From Oceanispirochaeta sp. (GTDB lineage: Bacteria > Spirochaetota > Spirochaetia > DSM-2461), in NCBI GenBank assembly GCA_963663385.2, contig CAXXXD010000002.1, forward strand, positions 160,001-224,000: a stretch of DNA of 64,000 nucleotides, written 5' to 3'. The stretch's first letter is position 1, and every line of letters starts with the position of its first letter. Under the pieces are notes generated by a model. It did not search any database. It was given only the letters and a program-made list of their open reading frames with translations, and had not been told where the DNA came from. Shown piece by piece: positions 6,983-46,000 of the stretch. A program made the position numbers and the translations under genes.

Positions 6983-7007
6983 GATCCCTGAGCGGAGTCG
7001 AGGGGTC
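6983..7007 (+). repeat. REP-like short palindromic repeat, copy 1
   Basis: GATCCCTGAGCGGAGTCGAGGGGTC is 23/25 identical to the reverse complement of 34864-34888. It sits between convergent genes. Confidence 0.65.
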
Positions 7008-8283
7008 AGTACTCGTATTTCATACGGATATAAAAATTATCATAATCGTATGAACGGACCAGGCTGTTGTCCGATGGTTCTCCCGTATTGATATCCGCCC
7101 CGGTTTCCAGTTTTAAACGGTCGGATAAGGCATAGGAGACCCGGGGGGCAAAGTAGATATTCGGGTGAAGGTATCCCGCATTCATTCCCAGGTAGAGTTT
7201 TTCCCTCAGAAAGCTTTTGTGCAGGTGAACGATAGCAAAGGCTATATGCTCCCGGGGCTGGATAAAGTAATCACTAAACTCATCTTTCAAAGTGTCGTAC
7301 AAGGCGCTGTCATAAACCTCATCCGTTTCATCATAGTTCAGAATATACTGGTAGATAATATTCACCTGGGCAAATGTTCCGTTCAGAATAGTACGGGTAA
7401 ACTGGGTGTCTGCTGTAATAAAGGAGTTTTTGACTCCCGGATCCTTTCCGTCCGGATCGTCTGTCATGGTAAACGCAAGATCTTCTGAAATTACCGTATT
7501 TCCGACGGTGGCGCTTATCCCGGCTCCAAACAGATTGTTTCGGCTGTAGTCTAAATCTGCTGTACCGATCAAATCCGTCGTGGTTTCTTCCAGATCCGAC
7601 AGGTCGAATCCGGGGGCCTGATCCGTATACCATCCATATACCAGCTGCAGATCGTAGCTGGGGGAAAAATGGTAGTAGCGCAAAAAGAGAGAATGGGGAT
7701 TTGCTGTTAAAAAGGGCTGATCTTCAAAATCAAGCGCAACGCTGCTGTCTGACATTTCTATGCATCCTCTGGGCTCATAATTCGGCCTGGGAAAGGGGAT
7801 GTAGATCAGTTCAAGGGTATCGTCGAAATTCGGGTAGTACTGGATCTGCAGCATCAGATCGGCTCTTTTGGCATCGTAGGGATCGTCCAGGCTGAACAGG
7901 ACGGGATTACTGCCGTTGATAACATTGAGGGGACTGAACACATCGGCAAAGCCGAAGGTCTCATATTTCTGGCCGAGGGAAAGATCAAAATCACCCAGTG
8001 GAAAGGAAAAAAAGGCTTCCCGCAGGATATTGGACGGGTCAACAAAGCCCTCCTCCCCTATTGGCTCATACCATACGTTGGCAGAGGCTGTAAAATCCAC
8101 CGCATAATTGAAAAGGGACGCCTGAAACTCCGGTTGGGCATAGTAGCGGTTCCTCAGATTGTCATAATCCTCTCCGTTTTCTATCCGGCCGTAGTAGTCA
8201 ATATAACTTAAAAACCGGAACTCTCCCGCCGACAGAATGGAGAGCGTCGCCGTCAGGAGTAATGCGCTAAGAAATTTCTTCAT
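7006..8283 (-). CDS. Putative outer-membrane beta-barrel protein (DUF1302-like)
   Basis: Signal peptide; LREAF...DLSLGQK; C-terminal aromatic motif YIRMKYEY; operonic with the LolA-like and MMPL genes. Confidence 0.6.
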   Translation of the reverse strand: MKKFLSALLLTATLSILSAGEFRFLSYIDYYGRIENGEDYDNLRNRYYAQPEFQASLFNYAVDFTASANVWYEPIGEEGFVDPSNILREAFFSFPLGDFDLSLGQKYETFGFADVFSPLNVINGSNPVLFSLDDPYDAKRADLMLQIQYYPNFDDTLELIYIPFPRPNYEPRGCIEMSDSSVALDFEDQPFLTANPHSLFLRYYHFSPSYDLQLVYGWYTDQAPGFDLSDLEETTTDLIGTADLDYSRNNLFGAGISATVGNTVISEDLAFTMTDDPDGKDPGVKNSFITADTQFTRTILNGTFAQVNIIYQYILNYDETDEVYDSALYDTLKDEFSDYFIQPREHIAFAIVHLHKSFLREKLYLGMNAGYLHPNIYFAPRVSYALSDRLKLETGADINTGEPSDNSLVRSYDYDNFYIRMKYEY

Positions 8284-13695: not shown

Positions 13696-14208
13696 ATGTA
13701 TTTTAGGCGCTTGAAGGTTTCTCTATTAACGATTGCTCTGCTGCTTACTGCGGTTTCATTGACAGCAGCTCTGGATACGGGAGACAGTCTCCCTCCTTTT
13801 TCCGTTGTCTCGGGTGACGGAAAAATCCTTATTGATATGGACCTGATAGGAAAGCATACTTTTCTTTTTTATGAAGACCGTTCTAAAATGGATATGAATG
13901 AAGGACTGAAGTCATTTCTTATGGCACAGGGATATAGCGATGAAGAGGTTCTTTTCATTGTTGTAGCTGACTGTTCAAAGGCAGGAGTATTCAAGCGGGT
14001 ATGGCAGACTCAATTGGAGGATGCTTCCCGAAAAAGCGGCAGCACGATCTACGGGGACTGGAACGGCCGTATGAAAGATTCTTTCCGCGCAGCAGATAAA
14101 ACATCTTCATTCTATATAATAGATCCCGCCGGTACGGTCAGATACTTCCGTGAGGGAGTCGTTCCGGAAAGCGAATTTCAGGAGATCAATGGCATCGTAT
14201 CACCTTAG
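13696..14208 (+). CDS. Exported thioredoxin-fold protein (YtfJ/redoxin-like, no CxxC)
   Basis: Signal peptide; GDSLPPFSV and FYIIDPAGTVRY redoxin-fold segments; AAAGGAG SD. Confidence 0.55.
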   Translation: MYFRRLKVSLLTIALLLTAVSLTAALDTGDSLPPFSVVSGDGKILIDMDLIGKHTFLFYEDRSKMDMNEGLKSFLMAQGYSDEEVLFIVVADCSKAGVFKRVWQTQLEDASRKSGSTIYGDWNGRMKDSFRAADKTSSFYIIDPAGTVRYFREGVVPESEFQEINGIVSP

Positions 14209-14233
14209 GGGATAAACGGTGTAATGGAATTCT

Positions 14234-15574
14234 ATGAAAAAATACAAATTCTCGGACAGGCAGCTTCTCTTCCTGTATTTTCTATCCCTTATCTCTTTGG
14301 GAGTACTCTTTTTATCTCTCCCCTTTTCCTATGTGAACGGGCATGCCGCACCCTGGATAGACCGGCTGTTTACGGCTGTCTCCGCAGTCTGCGTCACCGG
14401 ATTGTCCACTTTCCCCACCGGGGATCTCAGCCGTATGGGGCAGATATTCCTTCTTCTCCTGATCCAGGCCGGAGGGTTGGGCTATGTAACTTTTACAACA
14501 CTCTTTCTTTTCTTCCCCGGGTCCCGTTTCTCCTTAAGGGACTCCTCGATTATTCAGCAGTATTTCGGTGAGAATCAGATCATGCAGCCCCGGTATATAT
14601 TGCTGAATATCCTTGGATTGACATTCGGCCTGGAGTTGTTTGGGGCCCTGATACTCTACCCGGGGATGCTCAGGCAGAATGTGGGGTCACCCGCTTTCTC
14701 CTCCGTTTTTCACGGGATCTCCGCCTTCTGCAATGCGGGTTTTTCCCTGTACCCGGACAGCCTTACCCGTTTTTCCGGTAATTCTCTTGTATTGGGAGGC
14801 GTTTCCCTGATGATTGTTACGGGCGGGCTGGGATTTATGGTTTTATGGAACCTGGGAAAGAAACTGCGGAATGGCAGATCTGTAAGACTGATGTATCATA
14901 CCCGTTTGATGCTGGTTCTGACTCCTCTCTTTATCCTGGGAGGGTTTGTATTTTTCCTGATTCAGGAAAGAACCGGTTTGCTGAAGTCCTATTCCACGCT
15001 AGACGCTATGCAGGCGGCCCTCTTTCAATCCATTACAACAAGAACGGCAGGGTTTAATACGATTGATCAGGGACAGCTCTCTCAACCCTCCCTGATTGTC
15101 ACCCTTCTTTTAATGATTACAGGAGGCGGTTCCGGATCCACTGCAGGAGGACTGAAGGTTTCCACGGTTTTTCTTCTGGCCCTTATTCTGACAAAAGGAG
15201 TGGATGACTATGGAGAGGTCAGTTTTCTGAAACGGCGGATAAGCCGTGACCAGTTGAACCGGGCAGGGTTTTATCTTATGAAAGCCGTTATGATCCTTTT
15301 CTTTAGCGTGCTTCTGGTAGCTCTGGTGGAGGAATCCCGCTGGGGAAGCGGTTTTTCTTTGACACAGATCGTATTTGAATGCGTTTCTGCTCTGGGGACT
15401 GTCGGTCTGAGCATGGGGATAACAGCGAACCTGCATCTTCTGAGCAAGCTGGTTATTATCTTTACAATGTTTGCGGGGCGGGTCGCCCTGTTTGCCATAA
15501 TTATGCCTCAGGTATATGATACGAAAGTTCAGAGGTATATCCGCTATCCGAAAGGGGAGGTTTTAATAGGATGA
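14234..15574 (+). CDS. trkH: TrkH/KtrB-family potassium uptake membrane protein
   Basis: SAVCVTGL, SAFCNAGFS, TTRTAGF, SALGTVGLS pore loops. Confidence 0.92.
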   Translation: MKKYKFSDRQLLFLYFLSLISLGVLFLSLPFSYVNGHAAPWIDRLFTAVSAVCVTGLSTFPTGDLSRMGQIFLLLLIQAGGLGYVTFTTLFLFFPGSRFSLRDSSIIQQYFGENQIMQPRYILLNILGLTFGLELFGALILYPGMLRQNVGSPAFSSVFHGISAFCNAGFSLYPDSLTRFSGNSLVLGGVSLMIVTGGLGFMVLWNLGKKLRNGRSVRLMYHTRLMLVLTPLFILGGFVFFLIQERTGLLKSYSTLDAMQAALFQSITTRTAGFNTIDQGQLSQPSLIVTLLLMITGGGSGSTAGGLKVSTVFLLALILTKGVDDYGEVSFLKRRISRDQLNRAGFYLMKAVMILFFSVLLVALVEESRWGSGFSLTQIVFECVSALGTVGLSMGITANLHLLSKLVIIFTMFAGRVALFAIIMPQVYDTKVQRYIRYPKGEVLIG

Positions 15575-16284
15575 AACAGTTTGCACTTATAGGTCTGAGT
15601 TCTTTTGCAAGACGGATAATTGAAGAGCTGGAGAGCTTTCATTGTGATATTCTGCTTATCGATAAGGACCCTGAAGCAATTGAGTTGTATAAAGATCGTG
15701 TCGCCCGGGCTTTTATTGCGGATGTTCTTAATGAAGAGACGATCCAGCGGTTGATTCCCTCCAACATAGACGGTGTTGTACTGGATCCGGGGGATCGGAT
15801 TGAGGTTTCGATCCTTGTTACCAATTATCTGAAAAAAATGGGAGTGAAGAATATTTTTGTCCGGGCCGACACGGATGAACATGGTGAAATCCTCAATCTG
15901 GTTGGAGCGGATCTTGTTATCTATCCCAACAGGGAGGCGGCCAAACGGATTGCGCCCATGCTGCTGACTTCCCGTTTGTTTAACTACATGCCCATAAGCG
16001 ATGGTCTTGTGATTGCCGAGGTCAGAGCTCCGGATAATCTGATCGGGAAAAATCTGATTGAAGCCAATTTAAGAAAGAATCATAATCTGAATATTATAGC
16101 CATACGTAATGCCGAGGATAAAGTGGATTATCAGTTCCGTCCGGCCGAATACCATATCCGAAAGAGCGATATCCTCCTGCTGGCGGGAGCTGAAATCGAT
16201 ATTCACGGCTTTGCAGGTACCCAGAAACCGGTGAGCAGTACTTCCGGACTGAAAAGCCTGTATCAGAAACTGTTTAATTCCTGA
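15571..16284 (+). CDS. trkA: TrkA/KtrA-family K+ uptake regulatory subunit
   Basis: N-terminal RCK (FALIGLSSF) plus TrkA-C domain; overlaps trkH by 4 bp. Confidence 0.9.
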   Translation: MKQFALIGLSSFARRIIEELESFHCDILLIDKDPEAIELYKDRVARAFIADVLNEETIQRLIPSNIDGVVLDPGDRIEVSILVTNYLKKMGVKNIFVRADTDEHGEILNLVGADLVIYPNREAAKRIAPMLLTSRLFNYMPISDGLVIAEVRAPDNLIGKNLIEANLRKNHNLNIIAIRNAEDKVDYQFRPAEYHIRKSDILLLAGAEIDIHGFAGTQKPVSSTSGLKSLYQKLFNS

Positions 16285-16414
16285 AATTCCGAGACCAGTA
16301 TCTTCTAAATATTCCACTTTCAATCATTACTGCCTATAATCGGTTTCATGAAAATCGGGGACTGAGCTGAAGGATGAGAATTAATCCTTATGATTCAGTC
16401 CTTAAGGAGTTAAT

Positions 16415-17269
16415 GTGAAACGTATAATAACTGTTCTATATAGTCTTTTATTTGTCGTCAGCCTTTCTGCCGGAGGGCAGCAGGAGGTCGCTGATCAGGT
16501 AATCCGGATTGGTGTTCTGCCCGATGCCTGTACTCTGCCCCTTTTTCTTATGCCCGAAGTGGAAGTTGTTCCCTTTATGAGTGCAAAGGAGAGGGAAACC
16601 GCCCTTCAGTTGGGGGAGTTGGACGGAGTGACAACCGACCTTGTTTCTGTCGTGGCTAATCAGCAGAAGGGGATGCCCCAGAAGGTTCTGACTGTTACGG
16701 AGACCCGTTTTATACTCGTAGCCAATCCCGGGATGGATGACGATGCTCTCTGGTCTGTCGGTATCTCCGAGAATACGGTAATTGAGTTTCTGGTGGATTT
16801 TTTTGCTGACGGCCGGGAGATGGAAAAAGTGGCTATCCCTCAGGTGCCTGTCAGAATGGAGATGCTGCGGAACGGAAAAATCCCTATGGCCTGTCTGACC
16901 GATGCCCTGGCCTGGCCTCTTCTGGGCAGCGGATTCAAAATCCTGGCTGATCAGCAGGACAGCGGTCTGGAACCGGCTGTCCTTGCCTTTTCCGAAGAGT
17001 TTCTTGAAGTAAACCCGGCTGTCCCCGAAACCTTTACAGTGGGATGGAACAAGGCTGTTGAGGAGATTAACAGTGATCCCGAAAAGTACAGAACCCTGCT
17101 TCTGGAAAAGGTCCGTCTGCCCGATGATCCTGAATTCCCCTTTCCCGTACCCTTGTATCATCCGGTAAAACTTCCCAATGAAAAAACGGTTCAGGTCGTT
17201 CTGGACTGGTACGGGAACAAATACGGGTTTGAGAAACCCGTCTCCTATTTTGATCTTATTGTTCCCTGA
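16415..17269 (+). CDS. ABC transporter substrate-binding protein (NMT1/SsuA-like class II)
   Basis: Signal peptide SLSAGGQQE; IRIGVLPD, ALQLGELDG; GTG start after AAGGAG. Confidence 0.8.
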   Translation: MKRIITVLYSLLFVVSLSAGGQQEVADQVIRIGVLPDACTLPLFLMPEVEVVPFMSAKERETALQLGELDGVTTDLVSVVANQQKGMPQKVLTVTETRFILVANPGMDDDALWSVGISENTVIEFLVDFFADGREMEKVAIPQVPVRMEMLRNGKIPMACLTDALAWPLLGSGFKILADQQDSGLEPAVLAFSEEFLEVNPAVPETFTVGWNKAVEEINSDPEKYRTLLLEKVRLPDDPEFPFPVPLYHPVKLPNEKTVQVVLDWYGNKYGFEKPVSYFDLIVP

Positions 17270-17323
17270 TTCGGGGGCGGGCTTTGGTGGACGCCGGAGC
17301 TCCGCCGCACTATAATCTGGGGC

Positions 17324-18772
17324 ATGGCTTATAAAAATCTGCAAGACTTTATATCTTTTCTGGAAAAAAAAGGTGAACTGAGGCGGGTCAGTGCCGAAGT
17401 TGATTCCCATCTGGAAATTACGGAAATTACCGATAGAATCAGCAAAAAGAACGGGCCGGCTCTTCTTTTTGAAAATGTAAAGGGATCAGAATTCCCTGTT
17501 TTGATTAATGCATTCGGATCCTACGACAGGATGGCAATGGCCCTGGGGGCTTCCTCTCTGGATGAAAAGGCAAAGGAGCTGGAAGATCTGGTCGACTGGG
17601 GTTTTTCCCAGATGCGGCAGCTGGATGTGATGAGTTTCTTTCCCAAAATGAAATGGGCCCGCCTTTTTCTGCCCCACAAGGTCCTTTCCGCCCCCTGTCA
17701 GCAGGTGGTGGACCATGATCCCGACTTAAACACTCTGCCGGTTCTGACCTGCTGGCCCGGGGACGGCGGTCCTTTCTTTACACTCCCTCTTGTTATTACA
17801 AAGGACCCTGAAACGGGGGCCCAGAATATGGGGATGTACCGCCTTCAGGTATTTGATAAAAATACAACGGGCATGCACTGGCATATGCATAAGGACGGGG
17901 CCCATTATTATCAGAAATACAGGGAGCGGGGAGAGCGTATGCCTGTGGCTGTTGCTCTGGGCTGTGACCCGGCGGTTACCTATGCCGCTACAGCGCCCCT
18001 TCCCGAGGGAATCTCGGAGCTGTTTTTTGCGGGATACCTGCGGGGCAGACCTGTGGATACGGTTAAGTGTATCACCTCGGATCTGCAGGTGCCCGCACAG
18101 GCGGAATTTGTTCTGGAGGGCTATGTGGATCCCACGGAGCCCCTCAGAAGGGAAGGCCCTTTTGGTGACCATACGGGTTACTACTCCCTGGCCGATGACT
18201 ACCCGGTATTTCATATCACCTGTATTACTCGCCGGAAAAAACCTGTTTTCCCGGCTACCATTGTGGGACAGCCCCCCATGGAAGACTGCTATATGGCCAA
18301 GGCTACGGAACGGATTTTTCTTCCCCTTCTGAAAAAGATGAACCCCGAGATAATTGATATGAACCTTCCCCTGGAGGGGGTCTTTCATAACTGTGCCATT
18401 ATCTCCATCCGCAAACGTTATGCCGGTCAGGTCCATAAAGTCCTCTACAGCCTGTGGGGGCTCGGGCAGATGCAATATACCAAAATGATTATTGTGGTGG
18501 ACCATGATGTGGATGTTCAGAATCTGAGTGTGGTGATGTGGAAGGTTTTTAATAACATAGATGCCAGGCGGGACCTTATTCTGAGCGACGGTCCCCTGGA
18601 TGCTCTGGATCATGCCTCTCCCCGTTCCCGTTTCGGTACAAGACTGGGGATTGATGCGACACGGAAAGGCCCCCTGGACGGGCACGAGAGGGAGTGGCCG
18701 GAAGATATTATGATGAGTGATAAGATTAAAGAGCAGGTAGACCGCCGCTGGAAGGAGCTGGGGCTTGATTGA
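17324..18772 (+). CDS. ubiD: UbiD-family prFMN decarboxylase (menaquinone/futalosine MqnL type)
   Basis: GPALLFENV, NMGMYRLQV, EGPFGDHTGYY, GIDATRK. Confidence 0.92.
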   Translation: MAYKNLQDFISFLEKKGELRRVSAEVDSHLEITEITDRISKKNGPALLFENVKGSEFPVLINAFGSYDRMAMALGASSLDEKAKELEDLVDWGFSQMRQLDVMSFFPKMKWARLFLPHKVLSAPCQQVVDHDPDLNTLPVLTCWPGDGGPFFTLPLVITKDPETGAQNMGMYRLQVFDKNTTGMHWHMHKDGAHYYQKYRERGERMPVAVALGCDPAVTYAATAPLPEGISELFFAGYLRGRPVDTVKCITSDLQVPAQAEFVLEGYVDPTEPLRREGPFGDHTGYYSLADDYPVFHITCITRRKKPVFPATIVGQPPMEDCYMAKATERIFLPLLKKMNPEIIDMNLPLEGVFHNCAIISIRKRYAGQVHKVLYSLWGLGQMQYTKMIIVVDHDVDVQNLSVVMWKVFNNIDARRDLILSDGPLDALDHASPRSRFGTRLGIDATRKGPLDGHEREWPEDIMMSDKIKEQVDRRWKELGLD

Positions 18773-19658
18773 TCTTGTAAGGAAGGAGATAAAGCGCAGC
18801 ACAGGAATCAGCCGGGCTGTTATGATGGAACATACCCTCTTCTCTCTACCTCTGGCCCTTTGCGCGCTCCTGATGGAAAGCCGTGGAAAACCGCACGGAC
18901 GGGTTGTTCTCTGGATTCTTCTGGCGGTATTCGGCGCGAGAAACGCCGCCAATGCCCTGAACCGTTTAATTGACCGTAAAATCGATGCGGATAATCCGCG
19001 GACTGCGGAACGGGATCTCCCCTCAGGCAGGGTAAAGGCCCGTGATCTGTGGATTTTTACTGTTCTCTGCGGGGGACTTTTCCTGCTTGCCGCCTGGCAG
19101 CTTAATCCGCTATGTCTGTTTCTCGTTCCCGTAGCCGTCGTTCTGATAGGCGGTTACTCCTTTACCAAACGGTTTACCTGGCTCTGTCATTACTGGCTGG
19201 GGATTACCTGTTCCGCCGCGGTTATGGGGAGTTTTCTGGCTCTGAGCGGTCGGTTCGAACTCCGGTATTTCCCCCTTACCGCTGCAGCTGCTCTGTGGAT
19301 TGCCGGGTTTGATATTATCTATGCTCTGCAGGATCTGGAGCATGACAGGAGGGCGGGGATTCACTCGGTTCCGGCACGGTTCGGCAGAAAGGGAGCCCTT
19401 ATTCTGGCTGGTCTCAGTCATCTGGGGACCTTGTTCTTATTCATCATGAATATTTATTTCTTTCCCCTTGGTTTCTGGCATATTCTGGGAATCTCTGCTG
19501 CTGCCCTGCTGCTGGCGGCGGAGCATCTTCTGGCCTGGAAGGGGGGCGTCCGATGGATTCCTCTTGCTTCCTATCACCTGAATCAGATCCTCTCCCCCCT
19601 GTTCCTGTTTTTTACTCTATTGGATATCTATCTGCCGGGAGGTATGTATGGCAGCTGA
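18765..19658 (+). CDS. ubiA: UbiA-family aromatic prenyltransferase (MqnP type)
   Basis: EHTLFSLP, NRLIDRKIDADNPRTAERDLPSG, FDIIYALQDLEHD. Confidence 0.9.
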   Translation: MIDLVRKEIKRSTGISRAVMMEHTLFSLPLALCALLMESRGKPHGRVVLWILLAVFGARNAANALNRLIDRKIDADNPRTAERDLPSGRVKARDLWIFTVLCGGLFLLAAWQLNPLCLFLVPVAVVLIGGYSFTKRFTWLCHYWLGITCSAAVMGSFLALSGRFELRYFPLTAAAALWIAGFDIIYALQDLEHDRRAGIHSVPARFGRKGALILAGLSHLGTLFLFIMNIYFFPLGFWHILGISAAALLLAAEHLLAWKGGVRWIPLASYHLNQILSPLFLFFTLLDIYLPGGMYGS

Positions 19659-20250
19659 TAAGAACCCGTTGGTTCTGGCCGTCAGCGGGGCAAGCGGGGC
19701 AGCTTACGCCCTGTCCCTGGCCGGCAAGTTAGTCGATCTGGGTATCCCTCTTCATCTGCTGATCAGTCCTGTTGCAGAAAATATTATCCTTCAGGAAACC
19801 GGCCGCCGTTCTGCCGACTGGGTTCGGGATCTGTCCAAGGCCGGGGATGTCCTGCTGGAAGACACGCAGAATTTTGCCGCGTCCATATCCAGCGGATCCT
19901 ATAAAACCAGGGGAATGATTATCGCACCCTGCAGCATGGGAACTCTTGGACGCATTGCCGGAGGCATTTCCGCCAATCTGATTGACCGGGCGGCGGATGT
20001 CTGTCTGAAGGAACGGCGAAGGCTCCTGCTTCTTGCCAGGGAAACGCCTCTTTCAATTATTCATCTGGAAAATATGCTGAAACTCACCAGGGCGGGGGCT
20101 GTTGTAATGCCCCCTGTTCCGGCTCTGTATACTTCACCTTCTTCCATTCAGGAAATGATCGATCAGACTGCAGATCGTGTACTGGATCTGTTTGATCTCG
20201 CCCCTCCCGGAGCTTTCCGCTGGAGTGATGGAGCTGCCGGGGATGATTGA
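19648..20250 (+). CDS. ubiX: UbiX flavin prenyltransferase
   Basis: SGASGAAY, SSGS, APCSMGTL, RAADVCLKERR, RETPL. Confidence 0.95.
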   Translation: MAADKNPLVLAVSGASGAAYALSLAGKLVDLGIPLHLLISPVAENIILQETGRRSADWVRDLSKAGDVLLEDTQNFAASISSGSYKTRGMIIAPCSMGTLGRIAGGISANLIDRAADVCLKERRRLLLLARETPLSIIHLENMLKLTRAGAVVMPPVPALYTSPSSIQEMIDQTADRVLDLFDLAPPGAFRWSDGAAGDD

Positions 20251-20995
20251 GTTTCGGGATCTGAACTTTTCCTATAGGGAAGGCGAGCCCGTTATTCATG
20301 ACCTGGACGGTCATTGGGAAAAGGGTCGGGTTCATGCTCTGATAGGCCCTTCGGGCTGTGGAAAATCAACCCTTCTGTACCTGATGGCCGGACTGATCCA
20401 GCCGCTGAGCGGATCCATTTCCGTTAAAGGGAGTAATCCCCGGCCGGGACGGAAGGAGACTGCTGTTATTCTGCAGAACCACGGTCTCTTTCCCTGGAAG
20501 ACCGCGTCTGCCAATCTGGCTCTGGGATTGAATATCCGCCGTGAAAGTAAAAGTACCCTGCAGGAGAAGGTAGACCGGATGCTGAAGGAGATGGGGCTGG
20601 AGGGAAAAGCCTCCTCTTATCCGGGAGAGCTTTCCGGGGGCGAACGGCAGCGTCTGGCTATCGGACGAGCTCTGATTCTGGAGCCGGATCTGCTGCTGTT
20701 GGATGAACCTTTTTCGGCTCTGGATGCCATGACCCGGGAACAGCTGCAGGACCGGCTCTGGCAGCTGAAACATAAGGACGAATCTGCCTCGAACCTGACA
20801 GTGATTCTGGTGACACACAGCATTGAAGAAGCTGTATTTCTCAGTGACAGGATACACATTATGGACGTTGAGGGCAATGTTCAAACAATGAGCAGTAAGA
20901 GTTATGGACCTGGCTCCCGCTTGAGCAGGGAGTATTTTGATAATTGTGTCAATCTGCGGCGGATATTTGAAGAGCATGCGGGGAGGATTCTGTGA
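20243..20995 (+). CDS. ABC transporter ATP-binding protein (SsuB/TauB type)
   Basis: GPSGCGKST, LSGGERQR, LLDEPFSALD, VTHSIEEAV. ATG at 20243 overlaps the ubiX end. Confidence 0.92.
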   Translation: MIEFRDLNFSYREGEPVIHDLDGHWEKGRVHALIGPSGCGKSTLLYLMAGLIQPLSGSISVKGSNPRPGRKETAVILQNHGLFPWKTASANLALGLNIRRESKSTLQEKVDRMLKEMGLEGKASSYPGELSGGERQRLAIGRALILEPDLLLLDEPFSALDAMTREQLQDRLWQLKHKDESASNLTVILVTHSIEEAVFLSDRIHIMDVEGNVQTMSSKSYGPGSRLSREYFDNCVNLRRIFEEHAGRIL

Positions 20996-21717
20996 AAAAG
21001 ATGATTCCCCCTCTTGTTATTCTGACGTTTCTCTGGCGGGCTGCCTCACTTCTGCTGAAGGCCCCCTTCTTTCCCACACCCGAGAAGGTTTTCATCGAAA
21101 TGATCAGCCAGTTCCGTATGGGACTGCTGGGGCCTCATCTGGGTATCTCTCTGCTGCGTGTTCTGACAGCGCTGGCAGCTGCCTTTATTCCGGCTCTCCT
21201 TCTGGGAATCTGGGCCGGCCGCAATGACAGGGCAGACCGTTTGATCAGTCCGTCCGTCTATGTCCTGTTTCCCGTCCCGAAAGTAGCTCTGCTGCCGATT
21301 ATCCTGCTGTTTCTCGGCCTGGGGAATGCATCCAAAATCTTCTTTGTGGCTCTGATCGTTTTCTTTCAGTTCTATCTGAATATCCGGGATGAATGCAACC
21401 AGATCAGCTCCCGCTATTTTGACTCTCTCACCACCCTGGGCGGGGGGCGGATGGATCAGCTGAAGCATATTATTCTTCCCGCCCTGCTGCCGCGGATATT
21501 CTCCTCCCTGCGCATGACCCTGGGTACAGCCATTGCCGTACTGTTTCTGGCCGAAACTTTTGCCACCAGACAGGGTATCGGCTGGTATATTATGGACGCC
21601 TGGTCCCGCATTGCCTATGTGGAGATGTATGCCGGAATTACCGCCCTGAGCCTGTCGGGTCTTCTGCTTTTTTCCCTTCTGGATATTCTGGAAAAACAGT
21701 ACTGTCCCTGGCAGTAA
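20992..21717 (+). CDS. ABC transporter permease (SsuC/TauC type)
   Basis: PVPKVALLP, ILPALLP, AETF...GIGWYI. Confidence 0.9.
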   Translation: MKKMIPPLVILTFLWRAASLLLKAPFFPTPEKVFIEMISQFRMGLLGPHLGISLLRVLTALAAAFIPALLLGIWAGRNDRADRLISPSVYVLFPVPKVALLPIILLFLGLGNASKIFFVALIVFFQFYLNIRDECNQISSRYFDSLTTLGGGRMDQLKHIILPALLPRIFSSLRMTLGTAIAVLFLAETFATRQGIGWYIMDAWSRIAYVEMYAGITALSLSGLLLFSLLDILEKQYCPWQ

Positions 21718-21838
21718 TTTCCCAACCCTTATTATTAATGTCCCCTTTTTTTTAATACTGCATACTCGATATAAGTTGAGAGTTTTTATTGCTGTTATGA
21801 GGATGAGTACTGTTTTCCCGAGTGATCGTAATATGCAT

Positions 21839-21866
21839 AAAAAAAGCCCAGCCGAAGCTGAGCTTT
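21839..21866 (-). terminator. Rho-independent terminator of the PFOR gene
   Basis: Minus strand AAAGCTCAGC-TTCG-GCTGGGCTTTTTTT. Confidence 0.8.
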
Positions 21867-21969
21867 ATATATGTAACAGAAGAGCAGCCCGAAGGATACT
21901 CTTCCGGTTCTCTGTGTAATTCGAGCCGCCCGGACCAAAGTTCAGGAGGCCTGTACATCAGAGGATGGA

Positions 21970-24900
21970 TTACATAATTTCTCCCATTTTCTTGAAGAAT
22001 TCCCATCTGTGCTTTGCATCGGCTTCTGCTTCGGCATAGAGTGCTTCGGCTTCGTCCGGTGCCGTTTTCATCAGAGCGGTGTATCTTCTTTCACTGCGGA
22101 TGAAGTCCTGGTAGCTTTCAGTGGGTTCTTTGCAGTCCCAGCTGAACTTCTTGCCTTCTTCCATAGTGGGGTTGTATCGGTACAGAGGCCAGTAACCGCA
22201 GTCAACGGCTCTTTTCTGCTCAACCTGAGTTTTCATCATGTTGATACCGTGAGCGATACAGGGCGCGTAAGCGAAAATGATGGAAGGTCCATCGTATGCT
22301 TCAGCTTCCATAATAGCCTTCTGAGCGTGATTCCTGTTGGCACCGAGAGCAATGGAGGCAACATAGCAGTAACCGTAGCTCATGGCCATAAGGCTCATGT
22401 TCTTTTTGCCCAGTCTCATACCGGCATTGGCAAACTTGGCAACAGCGGCAATCGGAGTAGCCTTGGAAGCCTGTCCTCCGGTGTTGGAGTATACCTCGGT
22501 GTCCACTACCAGGATGTTTACGTTTTTACCGGCAGCCAGTACGTGGTCCACACCTCCGAAACCGATGTCGTAAGCCCATCCGTCACCACCGATGATCCAT
22601 ACGGACTTATCAACGAAGTAGTCCTGCAGCTCAATGACCTTGGCCATGGTTTCGTCGCCGGCCGCATCCTTGGGCAGAGCAGCCTTAACAGCATCCTGAG
22701 CGTCAATGGCTTTCTGGGATTTATCTTCCCACAGTTCAAGAGAAGCTTTCAGGGCTGAAGTCAACTCGGGAGTAGTTCCGGCGGCCAGCAGCTCATCCAC
22801 TTTCTTTTTAAGCAGGGTTCTGTTGGAATCAACAGCCAGTCTCATACCGAAACCGTACTCTGCATTGTCTTCGAACAGTGAGTTACCCCAGGCGGGTCCT
22901 CTTCCCTGTTCGTTTTTGGTGTAGGGAATTGTGGGGAATGTTCCGCCGTAAATGGAGGAACATCCGGTAGCGTTGGCTGCAACCATGTTATGACCGCAGA
23001 TCTGGCTGACCAGCTTCACGTAGGGAGTTTCACCACATCCCGCACAGGCGCCGGAGAACTCGAACAGGGGTCTTCTGAACTGCATACCCTTAACATTCTC
23101 TTCGGAAGATCCGTCCAGAGCACCGTAGGGGAGGGGTTCAAAGAATTTTTCATTCTCATGCTCACCGGCTGCTCTTTCTTTCTCAAGAGTAGACCATGTA
23201 AGGGCTTTATCTTTTGCGGGACAGGTTTCGATACAGACACCGCATCCCTGACAGTCATCGGTATATACCTGAATTTTGTATTTGAGATCTGCTTCTTTAT
23301 CCTTGGAAGCTTTCAGATCGACAACGTTGAAGGTGTCGGGAGCACCGGCCAGATCGGCGGGTCTGATCTGCTTGGCTCTGATGGCTGCGTGGGGACAGGA
23401 CTGTACACACTGGTTACACTGGATACAGTTATCGGAGTTCCATGCGGGAACTCTGGGAGCAACACCGCGTTTTTCCAGTTTGGTAGTTCCTGTGGGGAGC
23501 ACACCGTCAAAGCTCATATGGCTTACGGGGATGTCATCACCTTTCTGGTGCATTACCTTTTCGATAATATTCTTTGTGAAATCATCGGCATCGGCGGGGA
23601 TCAGTCTTTCTGGTACGTAAGACTTGGTGATGGAAGAGGGAACGTCAACCTTGATCAGAGCCTCTCCGGCCTTGTCAACGGCGTTCCAGTTCATCTTGAC
23701 GATGTCTTCACCCTTTCTGCTGAAGGTTTTCTTGATGTAGGTCTTCATCAGGTCGATGGCCTGTTCTTCGGGCAGTACGCCGGAGATCTTGAAGAAGGCA
23801 GCCTGCAGAACAGTGTTGGTTCTGTTTCCCAGCCCCACTTCCTCTGCAATCTTGTAGGCGTTCATGGCGTAGAACTTAATCTTGCGGTCGATGATGATCT
23901 GCTGTTCCTCTTTGGTCAGGCTGGCGAAAATCTCGTCGGCGGGAGCTTCGGTGTTCAGCAGGAATACTCCGCCCTCTTTCAGGGGACCGAGCATGTCATA
24001 ACGACCGATATAGGCGGGGTTGGAACAGGCTACGAAGTCTGCCGCAACGATCAGCCAGGGCATGTTAACGGAAGATTTACCAAATCTCAGGTGAGAAGTG
24101 GTTACACCGCCGGACTTTTTGGAGTCATAGTTGAAGTAAGCCTGAGCGTTCATGTCGGTGTTGTCACCGATGATCTTGATGGAGTTTTTGTTGGCGCCTA
24201 CTGTACCGTCGGAACCGAGACCCCAGAACATTCCGCTGAAGGTGTCTGCGGGAGCAACATTGATCTGCTCTTTAACTTCGATGGATTTATTGGATACATC
24301 GTCTTTGATTCCAACGGTGAATCCGTGAAAACAGGCGCCGTCCAGGTGATCAAAGATGGCTTTAACATCGGAAGGAGTGAACTCTTTGGAAGACAGGCCG
24401 TAGCGTCCGCCGATGATCGTAATATCCTTGCCCTGCATAACAGTTACAACATCTTTGTACAGGGGCTCACCCAGAGAACCGGGTTCTTTGGTTCTGTCCA
24501 TAACGGCGATCTTCCTGCAGCTTGCGGGAAGAGCGTCGATAAATGCTTTGGCGCTGAAAGGTCTGTACAGTCTTACCTTGATGGCACCGACTTTTTCACC
24601 TCTGGCAACAAGGTAGTTGATGGCATGTTCGGCTGTATCGCAACCGGATCCCATGATGATGATTACCTTTTCAGCATCGGGAGCACCTACGTAATCAAAC
24701 AGGTGGTACTGACGTCCGATCTTGGCAGCCAGTTTGTCCATGTATTCCTGAACAATTTCGGGAACTGAATCGTAGATGTTATTGGTGGTTTCACGACCCT
24801 GGAAGTATACATCGGGGTTCTGTGCGGCTACCTTGACGATGGGAGCTTCAGGTCTCATCGCTCTGGAGCGGAAACGTTCAATGTATTCGGGTTCAATCAG

Positions 24901-25696: not shown

Positions 25697-27277
25697 TTAA
25701 CGGTATAGAAGGCGCATATATTCCAGTCTGGCAAAATCCTCTAACAGGGATCTATCTATCTGTTCCGACCGGAAATCCCTTACGGGGACGGAGGGAGTAT
25801 CAAACGATGAGAGAATAGATTCGAATGCTCTTCCGTAGGACTCCATCCCATAGTTTTCATATAGACAGGCTTTCTGCTGATCCGGGGAGGGTTGTGTGAT
25901 GGAGGACAGTTTTTCAAGCAGTTCCGTATTTATCAACCGGCACTCTTCCCTATAGGACGGATCGGAGGCTATCTGTTCAAGAAACCTGTATTGATCCTCC
26001 GGAGAAAGATAGGAGAAGTCTATTCCTTCAGAATCAAGGAGACTGTCCAACTGTTCTCTCAATCGATTCTGAAGCCGAGACGGCATTTCCGTACTGACCG
26101 ATGCAAAACGGCTGGTGTATTCCCGCCTTAACGCTTCCTTCAGCCCCCTGTCGCCGGGGATACGAACAGTCTGGTATAAGAGGCTGGGGTAATGACTGAG
26201 GAGGGGAATAAAACCGCCCATAATATCCAGATGCCGGGCTATAAGGGGTTTATTCCAGACAATGGCATTCAGATACATATAGCCGAACCCTTCCTGAACG
26301 GATGAGGAGAATATACAGTCCGCCCCCTGAATCATATCTCTGTAAGTGATTCCCGACTCTTCCGGCAGAAGGCCGGTTCCCCAGAATCCCGGGATAAGTC
26401 CTTCGGCAAAAGCCTTTTCACTAAGATCCGAGTAGGGTTTCTCCTGAGGGGATATCCCCGGGAGTGTCACCACAAGGTTTACAGGATTCTCCATCAAGGC
26501 TGTAATAAAACCGCCCTCCAGCACGTTTTTTCTCCTGATAGAGCGGACCGGGTAGAGCCAGATTTTTCCGTTTTCATGAAACAGTCCTTTTTCCGGAAGG
26601 TAGTGAATCAGTTCTTTCTTTATCCGGGAACTGTTTTTTCCGGATGTATCCTTTTCTGAAGTATCAGTTTCGGGGAGAGGGTTTTCCAGGAGAAACAGCC
26701 TGTCTGAAGGAAGGCCGGCGTTGTTTAACAGATCGAAATCCCTTTTATTTATAACGCAATAGCGGACAGAATCCGACAGGGAATAGAGGGATCCCTCAAT
26801 ATGTTCCCTGAGAATCTTCAAGTTGGCAAAGCGGCCGCACTCCGGAAAATCATGAATCTGGAATATCATCTTCTGCTTTTCCTCTTCCGCCAGAGCAAGC
26901 AGGGCTTTTGTAAACTTCCAGTTTTTTCCAAGATGATAGTTATGAATCAGCCAGACGGTCTGTTCACCCCCGAACAGCCTGAGCAGGAGTTCTTTCAAAC
27001 CGGTTTCGGTCTGATCCGGGTCTCTTCCGGTTGTCAGGTAATCCAGTTCGCACATTATCCGTATGGACAGGGCGGTTCTGCTATCCGGAAAGGAGGAGCG
27101 AAGCTCATTCAGGTAATTATTCAGAGGAGCGATATTTTCATCCCTGCCGCATACCAGGGTAATGGACTGAAAGGCCGTTTTCCGGTAGAACGACTGGAGG
27201 GAAAGCCGGATGACATCTGTAACTCCCCCGGGGAGCAGATGATAGTGAAAAATGATCAGGTCCTGAAGCTGTTTCAT
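25697..27277 (-). CDS. GT-B glycosyltransferase-like protein (GT4-related)
   Basis: HYHLLPGGVTDVI, YPVRSIRRKN, SSVQEGFG motif. Confidence 0.55.
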   Translation of the reverse strand: MKQLQDLIIFHYHLLPGGVTDVIRLSLQSFYRKTAFQSITLVCGRDENIAPLNNYLNELRSSFPDSRTALSIRIMCELDYLTTGRDPDQTETGLKELLLRLFGGEQTVWLIHNYHLGKNWKFTKALLALAEEEKQKMIFQIHDFPECGRFANLKILREHIEGSLYSLSDSVRYCVINKRDFDLLNNAGLPSDRLFLLENPLPETDTSEKDTSGKNSSRIKKELIHYLPEKGLFHENGKIWLYPVRSIRRKNVLEGGFITALMENPVNLVVTLPGISPQEKPYSDLSEKAFAEGLIPGFWGTGLLPEESGITYRDMIQGADCIFSSSVQEGFGYMYLNAIVWNKPLIARHLDIMGGFIPLLSHYPSLLYQTVRIPGDRGLKEALRREYTSRFASVSTEMPSRLQNRLREQLDSLLDSEGIDFSYLSPEDQYRFLEQIASDPSYREECRLINTELLEKLSSITQPSPDQQKACLYENYGMESYGRAFESILSSFDTPSVPVRDFRSEQIDRSLLEDFARLEYMRLLYR

Positions 27278-29945: not shown

Positions 29946-29976
29946 ACCGGGGAGTGAGTATCCCCGGTTTTTTTTG
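29946..29976 (+). terminator. Rho-independent terminator
   Basis: ACCGGGGA...TCCCCGGT followed by a T run. Confidence 0.8.
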
Positions 29977-30088
29977 CATCAAAAAAAAACATATTTTCTT
30001 TATTGATTTATCCTTGTATAATTGGCACAATTGTTTACTAATTGATGGCCGGTATATCTCCGGCGATACTGCAAGAGGAGTTTCATTA

Positions 30089-31906
30089 ATGAAAAAAGAT
30101 GTTTTATTTATTCTGTTTTTTACTCTACTGTTGTTCACAGTAGGATGTAAAAATGTATCCTCACCCAATAGCGATGATTCGATAGAGGATGTGGACGATA
30201 CAACAGATAATCCTTTGAATGAGGATAGTTCTGCTCAGAACAGCAGCGGAGGAACAAATGTCAATGGTGTAATCACTATTCCCAACAGCCTGAACATTGT
30301 TTCATCAGGGGCGTCCAGGGCTGCGGTGGCCGATTTAACCGGGAATATTGTTATCCTTATTGGAGATGTCGAACTAACCATCCCCGCCGGTTCTCTTGAA
30401 ATCGACAGTGCTTATATCAGGGCGCCCTTCTCGCAGGACCTGGACTTTTCCGGATTGGTTGTCATAACGTATTTTTCAGAACTGGTTTATCAGGGGACTG
30501 CCATTGAAGCCGCCGGTACAGTTATGACTGTGGTAAATAACGGCGCAGATAACAATATTAATGATACCGATGGTGACGGGAGTGTTTCATCGGATGAAGA
30601 GACGGGAACTTTCAGTGACGTAAGCCTTACGGACACATCCCTGACAGGTGTTCCTGTCATAGATGCTTTCAGCGTTTCTTCTCATACGTCAGATTCTCCG
30701 GTTATTACGTTTTCAGCGTCCTTATCCAATATGAATATGGAGTTTGTAACTCTGAAGGTAAATGATTCCTACCGGATTATCGACCTTAATCTTGCGGGTG
30801 GAGCATGCAGTGTAAATGGGAAAGAGCTACCTCTTTCTCCCGGTGTGAACGAAGTGCAATTAATAGCGATAAACAGTAATGGTGTTACCAAATCGGGTAT
30901 TGAATCTGTTACATATAATTCCCAGGTTGAACCCGGATCTCAGGGGCTGCTGTTCACGCTGGACTGGGACACTCCTACAAGTGATATGGATCTGCATACG
31001 TATTATTATTCGGATACTTCACCCACAAGTTCTCTGGCACCTGCATGGCATAATTATTTTGGAAATATGACAGCTCCTTTAATGGATTCTGAGCTGTCAA
31101 GCCTGCCTGGAGATGTTAGCGCCATATCGACAATTGATGGAGCCGATACTAATATTTCATTTGATCATGCTTCAATAGATTTCGATTTTTACACTTCAGA
31201 ATTGGAAATCTCTTTATGGTCAGCCAGTGACAGGAATCAATTTATTGATATTGAAGTTGATTCCACTCTTTCCCAGCTGGGAGTTGGATCCTACGCTCTA
31301 AGCGGATCGGGTTCATTTAGGTGTTATAATAGATATTTCGATTTTACTTTAACATCCGGTTCAATCAATATAACAGCTATTGATTCGGATCAGTATTCCG
31401 GAACAATAACTATGAGCGGTTCTGCATCCGTTTCCGGGACCCCCCAGGGAACATTCTCAACAGCAATTTCATTTAACCACGCTTTTAATGCAGATTCCAA
31501 TTTGTATTCTATCGCAAATAAACTGGATGTAGATGATGTCTATGGGTATGGACCGGAGCATTTTACACTGAATGATGCTCCTGACGGATACTATGTTGTT
31601 GCAGTGAATTCCTATGACCTGGATTCAGATCCTGACACACGGTGTTTTGTTACGATTCAGACCTCAGAAGCAATGCAAGTTCTGGGTCCCTATCTTTTTA
31701 CGGAAAGCAATGGAATGGATTATCCCATAGAAGGTAGCGGCTCCTGGTACCGAGTTGCAGATATCAAGGTTGTTAACGGCAAAGCGACAATTCTTAATGC
31801 TAATACAGGGCTAAACAGTAATCTTGCTGCAGGGCTGGGACCGGTGGGAAGTTTCAGTCTCAATAGATCTATTCAAAATGAAGGAATTATTTCTTCCCGA
31901 AAATAG
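30089..31906 (+). CDS. Surface lipoprotein with EF-hand-like loop, Ig-like domain and split YfaP-like domain
   Basis: ATG at 30089 after GAGGAG; lipobox TVGC; DTDGDGSVSSDE; LDWDTPTSDMDLH ... LDVDDVYGYGPEHF. Lower GC than its flanks. Confidence 0.65.
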   Translation: MKKDVLFILFFTLLLFTVGCKNVSSPNSDDSIEDVDDTTDNPLNEDSSAQNSSGGTNVNGVITIPNSLNIVSSGASRAAVADLTGNIVILIGDVELTIPAGSLEIDSAYIRAPFSQDLDFSGLVVITYFSELVYQGTAIEAAGTVMTVVNNGADNNINDTDGDGSVSSDEETGTFSDVSLTDTSLTGVPVIDAFSVSSHTSDSPVITFSASLSNMNMEFVTLKVNDSYRIIDLNLAGGACSVNGKELPLSPGVNEVQLIAINSNGVTKSGIESVTYNSQVEPGSQGLLFTLDWDTPTSDMDLHTYYYSDTSPTSSLAPAWHNYFGNMTAPLMDSELSSLPGDVSAISTIDGADTNISFDHASIDFDFYTSELEISLWSASDRNQFIDIEVDSTLSQLGVGSYALSGSGSFRCYNRYFDFTLTSGSINITAIDSDQYSGTITMSGSASVSGTPQGTFSTAISFNHAFNADSNLYSIANKLDVDDVYGYGPEHFTLNDAPDGYYVVAVNSYDLDSDPDTRCFVTIQTSEAMQVLGPYLFTESNGMDYPIEGSGSWYRVADIKVVNGKATILNANTGLNSNLAAGLGPVGSFSLNRSIQNEGIISSRK

Positions 31907-35636: not shown

Positions 35637-36938
35637 ATGTTACAAACTGAAAACAGCTGCGGAGAATTCCTTCGTGCCAGACAGTATATTCCCGGAGGGG
35701 TGAACTCTCCTGTCCGTTCCTTTAACAGTGTGGGAGGCAGTCCGCTCTATATAGCATCCGGTTCCGGTGCTTATGTGGATGATATAGACGGGAACCGTTA
35801 CCTGGATTTTCTCGGTTCCTGGGGCCCCCTTATACTGGGGCACTCCCATCCCGCTATTGTCCGGGCGGTTAAAGAGGCCTGTGAAAAAGGGATGAGCTTC
35901 GGAGCTCCCACGGTAATCGAAACAGAGCTGGCGGAAAAAATAGTATCCATGGTTCCTTCCGTCGAAATGGTTAGAATGGTTAATTCCGGTACGGAAGCGA
36001 CCATGAGTGCCGTCCGCCTGGCGAGAGGCTATACCGGACGGGATCTGATTATTAAATTCGAGGGCTGTTATCACGGCCATGGCGACAGTTTCCTCATTTC
36101 AGCAGGATCAGGTGCCGCGACCCTCGGCATTCCCGACAGCCCCGGAGTAACCGCCGGAACGGCTGCGGATACGCTGGTTGCCCGCTATAACGACCTTTCT
36201 TCCGTCCGGGAGCTGTTCAGGAAGCATGAAGGGCGGATTGCCGCGGTGATTGTCGAACCTGTGGCCGGTAATATGGGAGTCGTTCCTCCCTGTGAGGGTT
36301 TTCTGGAGGGGCTGAGAGCGATTACTTCAGAAGAGGGGGCGCTGTTTATTCTGGATGAAGTCATGACCGGTTTCAGAGTCGCCCGGGGAGGCGCCCAGGA
36401 ATATTTCGGCATTACTCCCGATCTGACAACATTCGGTAAAATTATCGGAGGAGGGCTTCCTGTAGGGGCTTACGGCGGCAGGAAAGAAATTATGATGCAG
36501 ATAGCGCCGGCCGGCCCTGTGTATCAGGCGGGGACTCTTTCCGGAAATCCTCTGGCCTGTGCTGCAGGACTTGCTGCTCTCAGCGTTATAGACAGTGACA
36601 GCACCTTTTACGAAAAACTGGAGAAACGGTCTGCTCAGCTGGCCGATGGGATGAGGGATAACTGCCGCAGACTGGGTGTCCGCGGGGTACTCAACCGGGT
36701 CGGTTCCATGATGACTTTCTTTTTTACACCCTTAAGCCGTGTTTCCAATTACTATGAAGCGGCTCAGAATCAGGCCGATCTGTACGGAAGATTTTTTCAT
36801 CTGGCTCTGGAAGAGGGGGTGTATTTTGCGCCTTCCGCTTTTGAAGCGGCATTTGTTTCCGGTGTTCACACGGAGGATCATATACAGAAGGCTGTCAGGG
36901 CCCATTACAATGCTTTGAAAAGACTCTCCGTCTTATGA
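35637..36938 (+). CDS. hemL: Glutamate-1-semialdehyde 2,1-aminomutase
   Basis: PGGVNSPVRSF, SGTEATM, FEGCYHGH, DEVMTGFR, FGKIIGGG, YQAGTLSGNP. Confidence 0.97.
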   Translation: MLQTENSCGEFLRARQYIPGGVNSPVRSFNSVGGSPLYIASGSGAYVDDIDGNRYLDFLGSWGPLILGHSHPAIVRAVKEACEKGMSFGAPTVIETELAEKIVSMVPSVEMVRMVNSGTEATMSAVRLARGYTGRDLIIKFEGCYHGHGDSFLISAGSGAATLGIPDSPGVTAGTAADTLVARYNDLSSVRELFRKHEGRIAAVIVEPVAGNMGVVPPCEGFLEGLRAITSEEGALFILDEVMTGFRVARGGAQEYFGITPDLTTFGKIIGGGLPVGAYGGRKEIMMQIAPAGPVYQAGTLSGNPLACAAGLAALSVIDSDSTFYEKLEKRSAQLADGMRDNCRRLGVRGVLNRVGSMMTFFFTPLSRVSNYYEAAQNQADLYGRFFHLALEEGVYFAPSAFEAAFVSGVHTEDHIQKAVRAHYNALKRLSVL

Positions 36939-42563: not shown

Positions 42564-42845
42564 GCCGTGTTTCCTTTCACAGTGCTATCCCCCCCAGAAC
42601 CCGGAATTTCTCCCTGTCTACATAAACAGTAATCTCATATGGTGTTTCCCGCACCTGTATTATTCACTCTACTATTCAGTATATGTTAATATTTTGTAAA
42701 GTTCATCCGGGATGTAAAACTGAACCCCGGATTAAAGAGGACTATAAAGCCTTCCAATGCAGATGCGGACAATTAAACAATTAATTACAAATATTTCATA
42801 AAATAGTTCTACGTTATTATAGTCCAAAGAGACTACTATAATTAC

Positions 42846-45990: not shown

Positions 45991-46000
45991 AGGAAATCAT

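Follow-up and report, generated by a model that had tools for sequence, protein, structure and literature searches.

A candidate importer for a menaquinone head-group precursor encoded in one operon with MqnL/P/M-like enzymes in Oceanispirochaeta

The stretch of 64,000 nucleotides from Oceanispirochaeta sp. analyzed here (the window; positions 160,001 to 224,000 of contig CAXXXD010000002.1, G000:C2:160001-224000) holds, at 16415-21717 on the forward strand, six consecutive open reading frames (ORFs) that form one operon according to the ORF list and domain scans. The first gene (16415..17269) encodes an exported substrate-binding protein (SBP) of 284 amino acids, assigned to an ATP-binding cassette (ABC) importer of the NitT/TauT type by its signal peptide and predicted fold. 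It is followed by the genes for a UbiD-family decarboxylase of the MqnL type dependent on prenylated flavin mononucleotide (prFMN) (17324..18772; TIGR03701), a UbiA-family, MqnP-like polyprenyltransferase (18765..19658; PF01040, TIGR01475), a UbiX-family, MqnM-like flavin prenyltransferase predicted to supply prFMN to the decarboxylase (19648..20250; NF004685, TIGR00421), an ABC ATPase (20228..20995; PF00005) and an ABC permease of the TauC/SsuC/NtrB type (20992..21717; PF00528), all on the same strand. The longest ORF of the ATPase begins at 20177, and its likely start is the ATG at 20228 or at 20243. A gap of 54 nt separates the SBP gene from ubiD, while all subsequent junctions overlap: UbiD/UbiA by 8 nt, UbiA/UbiX by 11 nt, UbiX/ATPase by 8 or 23 nt when ATG 20243 or 20228 is used (74 nt with the longest ORF), and ATPase/permease by 4 nt (GTGA). 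These overlapping junctions imply co-translation from ubiD through to the permease. The UbiA gene has a TTG start with the Shine-Dalgarno sequence GGAAGGAG, and a T-run lies 3' of the permease stop codon. The initial annotation of this DNA had described the same gene order and overlaps and had noted that mqn, men and ubiC genes are missing from the window; both points are borne out, the latter by a scan of 53 window ORFs that found none of these genes.

The decarboxylase comprises three UbiD Pfam domains and passes the MqnL/SCO4490 equivalog model TIGR03701, scoring 640.6 bits where 495.9 are required, whereas on the model for the proteobacterial 4-hydroxy-3-polyprenylbenzoate decarboxylase (NF008175) it reaches 450.8 bits, below the cut-off of 788. 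As an MqnL-like enzyme it is predicted to act on prenylated dihydroxy-6-naphthoate. The UbiX homologue passes both NF004685 (202.3 against 188 bits) and TIGR00421 (195.5 against 108.9 bits). The prenyltransferase matches PF01040 with 187 bits, and the one cut-off that it passes is that of TIGR01475, 'UbiA-like, other' (257.3 against 180.8 bits); on the proteobacterial UbiA model it scores 122 bits and is thus nearer to the MqnP models. MqnP, MqnL and MqnM were named in 2016 by Ravcheev and Thiele on the grounds of comparative genomics and, in the parts of that paper drawn on here, only alongside the Mqn pathway (PMC4746308). With the mqnL-mqnP-mqnM cluster of the SCO4490-4492 type treated there, the operon shares the three families in a single cluster, and its decarboxylase passes the SCO4490 equivalog; it differs in that mqnA, mqnC, mqnD, mqnE and the methyltransferase are absent and that ABC importer genes flank the trio in one operon.

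The SBP has an N-terminal signal peptide and no lipobox cysteine. Searches against Pfam up to E≤10 and against NCBIfam, including the NMT1, NMT1_2 and SsuA models, gave no match, and a sequence-profile search of the PDB returned nothing significant, the best hit being an unrelated protein with an E-value of 0.067. An AlphaFold2 model based on an alignment of 36 homologues reached a predicted local distance difference test score (pLDDT) of 90.4 and a predicted template modelling score (pTM) of 0.83, and a Foldseek search with this model listed at the top SsuA, TauA, Thi5/NMT1, ThiY and PqqT, which binds pyrroloquinoline quinone (PQQ), with a probability of 1.00 and a TM-score of about 0.7. By its predicted fold the protein is a periplasmic binding protein of the SsuA/TauA/NMT1 type (type II) with an export signal. 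Its 63 homologues are labelled NitT/TauT SBPs by their sources; the closest come, by source names, from Oceanispirochaeta and relatives, and the clade is narrow and mostly spirochaetal. We also considered the SBP as a secreted relative of MqnA or MqnD and rejected this, as the corresponding structures appeared in the Foldseek search at rank 44 (chain 2nxo, SCO4506, which we take to be MqnA) and at ranks 37-49 (7an5-8 and 7ywc), all below SsuA, Thi5 and PqqT; with MqnA/D-type structures ranked in this manner the fold result is not discriminating.

Of the other two importer subunits, the ATPase matches PF00005 (ABC_tran) with 109 bits, the best NCBIfam models being those for the ATPases of phosphonate, taurine, sulfate and nitrate importers, all below their cut-offs; ATPase models align only from residue 23 or later. 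The permease matches PF00528 (BPD_transp_1) with 67 bits and reaches 104 bits on SaoP, 93 on TauC and 88 on SsuC, again all below cut-offs. Both subunits are thus closest to those of Tau, Ssu and Ntr systems, and since they miss all equivalog cut-offs no substrate can be assigned from them. The system shares its SBP fold, its permease and ATPase families and its three-component architecture with the NitT/TauT importers SsuABC, TauABC, the ThiY system for a hydroxymethylpyrimidine (HMP) precursor and PqqT. It differs from these in that its SBP matches neither Pfam nor NCBIfam, its ATPase and permease reach no equivalog cut-off, its genes are split by those of biosynthetic enzymes, and the ligand class suggested for it is a quinone head-group precursor.

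As a search of the whole genome for early quinone pathway genes had been called for by the initial annotation, profile searches were run on the complete assembly (5.3 Mb on four contigs, 98.13% complete), with control genomes giving the expected matches in each search. No match was found for PF02621, the family of MqnA and MqnD, nor for MenA, MenB or UbiC, and the best scores for MqnC (45 bits, with the cut-off at 428), MqnE (41 against 435), MenD (76 against 244) and UbiE/MenG (77 against 158) remained far below threshold; MenA and MenG also gave no tblastn match. With these results, obtained without a search for MqnB, the operon contains the only recognizable quinone biosynthesis genes of the organism, and these are late ones. 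The missing methyltransferase, which the initial annotation did not foresee, recurs in a wider set, as MenG/UbiE at E≤1e-30 is absent from all 24 Mqn-linked genomes that were examined, and without it the product is probably demethylmenaquinone.

Linkage of the importer to the enzymes is conserved. A pattern scan with the SBP alignment, restricted to one genome per species, yielded 23 loci that were scored by tblastn with the six window proteins. In 11 of the 12 spirochaete loci the SBP gene is directly followed by ubiD, and in seven of these ubiA, in some cases accompanied by ubiX, and then the ATPase and permease genes come next, the remaining four ending at a contig edge; the twelfth (L015) has, in this order, a U32 protein, a class-III aminotransferase, the SBP and an SBF transporter. 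In all five Firmicutes loci a UbiD-UbiA-UbiX block lies upstream of an SBP-ATPase-permease block encoded by the same strand, the two being contiguous in two loci and separated by a U32 protein and an aminotransferase in three. Two further Bacillota loci show UbiX directly upstream of SBP-ATPase (L032) and SBP-ATPase only, on a 4-kb contig (L033). In Actinomycetes the one locus has the transporter followed by MenA, and in the three Coriobacteriia loci SBP-ATPase-permease stands alone. Spirochaetota and Bacillota thus keep the SBP linked to the enzymes in three or more different gene orders, and in Actinomycetota the link is to MenA. None of the 12 genomes with the linked form outside the class sample described below has a PF02621 match, and none has MqnC or MenB at scores over the respective cut-offs, so that neither there nor in the Oceanispirochaeta genome does MqnL coincide with early futalosine genes as judged by PF02621 and MqnC. 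The three Coriobacteriia genomes with the unlinked transporter do have a cluster of an MqnE-like gene, PF02621 and MqnC, at 262-489 bits.

The same picture emerged from a class sample of 401 Spirochaetia genomes including our own, many of them incomplete. The SBP model matched 102 of the 401 at E≤1e-20, in two tiers of 411-488 bits (19 genomes) and 83-187 bits (the rest), and MqnL was found above cut-off in 41. When coordinates were compared by hand, 36 of these 41 had an SBP match within 2 kb on the same contig; in four the SBP lay at 5.5-19 kb (G108, G311, G083, G056) and in one on another contig (G228). Of the lower-tier linked loci, six were inspected: all contain SBP, UbiD and UbiA in varying arrangements, the full contiguous series UbiD-UbiA-UbiX-SBP-ATPase-permease being found only in L048, with UbiX missing from L052 and L053 and the SBP or ABC genes set apart or on the opposite strand in L049-L052. 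Matches to PF02621 over the 26-bit Pfam cut-off occurred in 39 genomes of the class sample, with a best score of 48.6 bits and partial alignments, compared with 262-265 bits for true genes. As hidden MqnA or MqnD we rejected the three that were examined (48.6, 41.1 and 34.5 bits), which are SBPs in SBP-permease-ATPase operons and match NMT1 models. From the low best score and the nature of these three matches we read the searched genomes as devoid of true MqnA/D. The co-occurrence of this SBP clade with ubiD/A/X in genomes without mqnA, mqnC and mqnD, proposed earlier as a check, is accordingly found in 12 of 12 linked genomes outside the class sample, and within it in the 36 MqnL genomes with a nearby SBP. 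Neither a complete futalosine pathway elsewhere in the genome nor a lack of conserved linkage between the ABC genes and ubiD/A/X, which in combination would have spoken against the initial annotation, was seen.

Several loci carry additional genes. Long U32 proteins (639-687 amino acids) and class-III aminotransferases lie directly upstream of the SBP in L015 (600-4622), L023 (3524-9918) and L027 (3943-9897); in L015 the aminotransferase gene overlaps the SBP start by 4 nt, and in the Firmicutes loci L023 and L027 UbiX forms a fusion with a PF04392 'ABC_sub_bind' domain. In a Bacillota locus (L025, 3351-16052) a multihaem cytochrome c precedes UbiD-UbiA-UbiX-SBP-ATPase-permease and CcmE, CcmF, CcmA, CcmB and CcmC follow, an arrangement that, going by gene order, would tie the module to respiratory cytochrome maturation. 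At L049/L059 (G088:C1:4380000-4396000) a second NMT1-like SBP of 337 amino acids and a Crp-family regulator are placed between that end of the cluster where UbiD is found and an ATPase-ATPase-permease set in divergent orientation. Descriptions of the futalosine route usually include two members of PF02621, MqnA and MqnD. In the Coriobacteriia genomes G013-G015 (loci L028-L030) a single PF02621 match is situated between MqnC and the MqnE-like gene, where matches are not to be read as copy numbers, and the lone SBP-ATPase-permease set of L030 adjoins a multihaem cytochrome.

A second genomic context, not foreseen by the initial annotation, is provided by sister transporters that stand beside MenA and MenG. 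Within the class sample, 59 genomes have a lower-tier SBP match and no MqnL. In six of them (G384, G210, G145, G100, G343, G346) a bona fide MenA (193-224 bits, cut-off 102) is encoded no more than 3.5 kb from the SBP, and in 13 a MenA-like gene scoring below cut-off is located directly beside the SBP. Four MenA loci were annotated; all have the order SBP-ATPase-permease-MenG-MenA, with MenA passing NF004751 (299-338 against 264 bits), MenG exceeding the 158-bit cut-off of TIGR01934 in both loci tested for it (233 and 240 bits) and the Pfam family Ubie_methyltran present in all four. In the vicinity GlpABC-like genes were found in two, and an Ndh2-like protein, an FMN_bind protein or a FAD_binding_2 reductase in others. 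None of eight tested genomes with MenA-linked sister transporters has MenB above cut-off. The only thing common to the Mqn-type and Men-type contexts is a dihydroxynaphthoate substrate, and this is our main argument for the ligand class. We also considered the SBP phylogeny as a read-out of the substrate. In a tree of 44 rows, where those exceeding 300 residues had been cut to the last 300 before building, the clade containing the window protein (13 rows, support 100/100), a spirochaete MenA-linked clade (6 rows, 100/100) and a clade linked to DmkA-like proteins and Ndh2 (7 rows, 98/95) were recovered. Contexts cluster, yet Mqn-linked and MenA-linked rows interleave, so that context does not map onto clean specificity clades, and this use of the tree was abandoned.

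Taken together, these data lead us to propose, with a probability of roughly 0.6, that the operon encodes a NitT/TauT-type importer for a dihydroxynaphthoate quinone precursor that is co-translated with the enzymes for its prenylation and decarboxylation. The periplasmic SBP would capture a soluble head-group precursor, a dihydroxynaphthoate that other microbes release; most likely this is 1,4-dihydroxy-6-naphthoate, with which the soluble part of the futalosine pathway ends. The ATPase and permease would import the compound. The MqnP-like prenyltransferase would then add the polyprenyl tail and the MqnL-like decarboxylase remove the carboxyl group with prFMN provided by the UbiX homologue, probably yielding demethylmenaquinone as the end product; we infer both the direction and the order of these reactions. 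The resulting quinone would most likely link an Ndh2-like NADH dehydrogenase to periplasmic flavin adenine dinucleotide (FAD) reductases flavinylated by ApbE. That the ligand is 1,4-dihydroxy-6-naphthoate specifically is a more tentative proposal drawn from gene context, in which our confidence stays somewhat below one half. We consider evenly balanced the wider proposition of a NitT/TauT importer family dedicated to dihydroxynaphthoate head groups and paired with either MqnP/L/M or MenA/MenG across Spirochaetota, Bacillota and Actinomycetota, with the lineages concerned being obligate scavengers and fermentative spirochaetes making demethylmenaquinone for a chain from Ndh2 to periplasmic flavoproteins. 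The initial annotation had suggested an importer of a naphthoate or another aromatic acid serving UbiD/A/X, and both computational checks, the genome search and the co-occurrence analysis, support this, with the nature of the ligand suggested by context. A precedent within the same fold class is PqqT with its ligand PQQ.

A number of observations weigh against this proposal. The SBP has no relative of known ligand by sequence, and its fold matches do not discriminate between ligands. The prenyltransferase scores 262, 204 and 203 bits on the three NCBIfam MqnP models and stays under all of their cut-offs (430, 375 and 420), and the roles of MqnP, MqnL and MqnM are themselves predictions from comparative genomics as given in the source drawn on here (PMC4746308). 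The lack of MenG fits demethylmenaquinone as the probable product and would also fit a different one, and the U32 proteins and aminotransferases in some clusters may hint at extra head-group chemistry. In 40 of the 59 genomes with a lower-tier SBP and no MqnL there is no MenA-family gene on the same contig, and the family boundary is fuzzy. In the SBP tree the Mqn-linked rows are spread over four or more positions, interleaved with MenA-linked ones. The query for the Ndh2-like protein matches many genomes without MqnL, in some cases over its N-terminal domain only. Related genomes in the sample are not independent, and a whole class with late and without early steps could equally point to an endogenous route to the ring.

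Following the same logic, the imported compound could be 4-hydroxybenzoate, 1,4-dihydroxy-2-naphthoate or another aromatic acid, to be converted to a different prenylated aromatic and possibly a new quinone, which we regard as unlikely. It would agree with a prenyltransferase that passes the broad TIGR01475 and none of the MqnP-specific cut-offs, with the missing methyltransferase in our own and the 24 Mqn-linked genomes, with SBP clades that switch between Mqn and MenA contexts and with the U32 proteins in some related clusters, the U32 family including oxygen-independent quinone hydroxylases. However, the decarboxylase with 640 bits on the MqnL model and 451 on that of the polyprenylbenzoate enzyme (cut-off 788), and the prenyltransferase with 262 bits on an MqnP model and 122 on proteobacterial UbiA, argue against it, as do the sister transporters paired with MenA, an enzyme acting on a dihydroxynaphthoate. 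For 4-hydroxybenzoate in particular, tblastn found no long U32 homologue in our own genome, which also lacks UbiE, so that this compound would end as a non-redox prenylphenol.

The possibility that the ring is made within the cell by an undescribed pathway, with the ABC system importing something else that the module needs or serving in regulation, appears improbable to us. The finding that late steps are encoded in 41 of 401 class members and true MqnA/D in none speaks for it; that such a number of lineages should all depend on neighbors is much to ask. Against it stand the naphthoate head group as the only element shared by Mqn-linked and MenA/MenG-linked contexts, the lack of candidate biosynthetic genes that recur in the spirochaete operons, and the quinone-precursor auxotrophy documented in other fermenters in the portions of the literature drawn on here (PMC10746273, PMC4746308); prFMN, for its part, is not required by MenA. 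Finally, an ordinary sulfonate, nitrate or thiamine-precursor importer placed among ubi genes by chance would match the SsuA/TauA/NMT1 fold class and the best-scoring taurine, sulfonate, nitrate and phosphonate models of the ATPase and permease, but with scores far below family cut-offs, overlapping junctions, and a linkage preserved through at least three gene orders in two phyla, with MenA in Actinomycetota and with an SBP within 2 kb of MqnL in 36 of 41 genomes, it is very improbable.

For the proposed importer and its enzymes, candidate users of the quinone are found on another contig of the genome, in a cluster (L054; G000:C3:183000-201000) that resembles flavin-based electron transfer systems. 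It contains an Ndh2-like Pyr_redox_2 protein of 672 amino acids that ends in a DoxX-like membrane region, with a polyprenyl synthase immediately after it, together with a protein of the heptaprenyl-synthase-component-I family, a two-component system of histidine kinase and response regulator, and two reductases of the FAD_binding_2 family. One of the reductases (L054 10309-12030) is a lipoprotein in which an FMN_bind domain with the flavinylation-type motif DAVSGAS is fused to a FAD reductase, and ApbE is present in the genome; these elements are spread over the loci L054 and L055. The Ndh2-like protein matches 140 of the 401 class genomes at E≤1e-80, divided into 38 of 41 MqnL-positive and 102 of 360 other genomes, kinship being ignored in this comparison. 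In 13 genomes its gene and the transporter or quinone cluster are no more than about 10 kb apart, and in G168, G192 and G244 the two are directly divergent. As other quinone users in our own genome we considered cytochrome bd, which was not found, and Ccm proteins, multihaem cytochromes and GlpB/C, which gave no tblastn match.

Features that the genome has in common with the flavin-based extracellular electron transfer system of Listeria are the neighboring Ndh2-like protein and polyprenyl synthase, a lipoprotein reductase that can be flavinylated, and ApbE. The Listeria locus, said to have been described by Light et al. in 2018, reportedly comprises Ndh2, DmkA, DmkB, PplA, EetA/B and FmnB. 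The spirochaete differs in that it lacks a homologue of MenA/DmkA, with neither a model match nor a tblastn match, in that it is a diderm with periplasmic reductases, and in that the cluster is situated off the contig of the operon. EetB, DmkA, Ndh2 and spirochaetes do not feature in the portion of the main text of the 2021 eLife paper on flavinylation drawn on here (PMC8238504).

The closest physiological parallel lies in Lactiplantibacillus plantarum, a fermentative quinone auxotroph that uses exogenous DHNA (1,4-dihydroxy-2-naphthoic acid), and for which the uptake pathways are, in the part of the mBio 2023 article concerned here, 'yet to be identified' (PMC10746273). Both organisms are mainly fermentative, lack head-group synthesis, retain prenylation and have a dehydrogenase of the Ndh2 type; L. 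plantarum keeps only MenA/DmkA, in contrast to the operon, which uses futalosine-type MqnP/L/M and carries a dedicated candidate importer (comparison limited to the same part of PMC10746273). Ravcheev and Thiele likewise stated, in the section at hand, that no importers were known for menaquinone precursors in soluble form (PMC4746308), and our search of open-access papers and preprints found no published transporter for dihydroxynaphthoate menaquinone precursors. Quinone precursors passing between microbes are regarded as a factor in the make-up of anaerobic gut, sediment and fermentation communities, and the SBP is a small, soluble candidate protein for the question of how these precursors are taken up. 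If the proposal holds, this would be the first menaquinone-precursor transporter to be identified and the first evidence for a futalosine-pathway intermediate as a traded public good. The proposal would also account for the half menaquinone pathway found in many 'fermentative' spirochaetes, and would link this half pathway to periplasmic flavoprotein reductases.

Two minor elements were picked up in and after the SBP gene, both by consensus scan only. A terminator-like hairpin is located at 17223-17241 on the forward strand, inside the 3' end of the gene and about 30 nt ahead of its stop codon, and the best sigma-70-like promoter match of the region (10 of 12 positions) falls into the gap between the SBP gene and ubiD at 17288-17316 on the same strand, ending 8 nt ahead of the ubiD ATG. 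Their effect could be a high level of SBP relative to the enzymes, or they could indicate an internal promoter. An Rfam scan of 14000-23000 at E≤0.1 detected no RNA element or riboswitch. The operon is bordered on its 5' side by trkH/trkA and on its 3' side by a convergent pyruvate:ferredoxin oxidoreductase gene. Elsewhere in the window, and with no linkage to the operon, a tetrapyrrole block at 35637-48964 on the forward strand encodes a HemL-like aminotransferase, a GlutR fusion, a HemC-methylase-HemD fusion, ALAD, CobB/CbiA, CbiC, CbiD and three more TP_methylases. Large ORFs that match no Pfam family are located at 25697-27277 (reverse strand, 526 amino acids), 29954-31906 (forward strand, 650 amino acids) and 7006-8283 (reverse strand, 425 amino acids).

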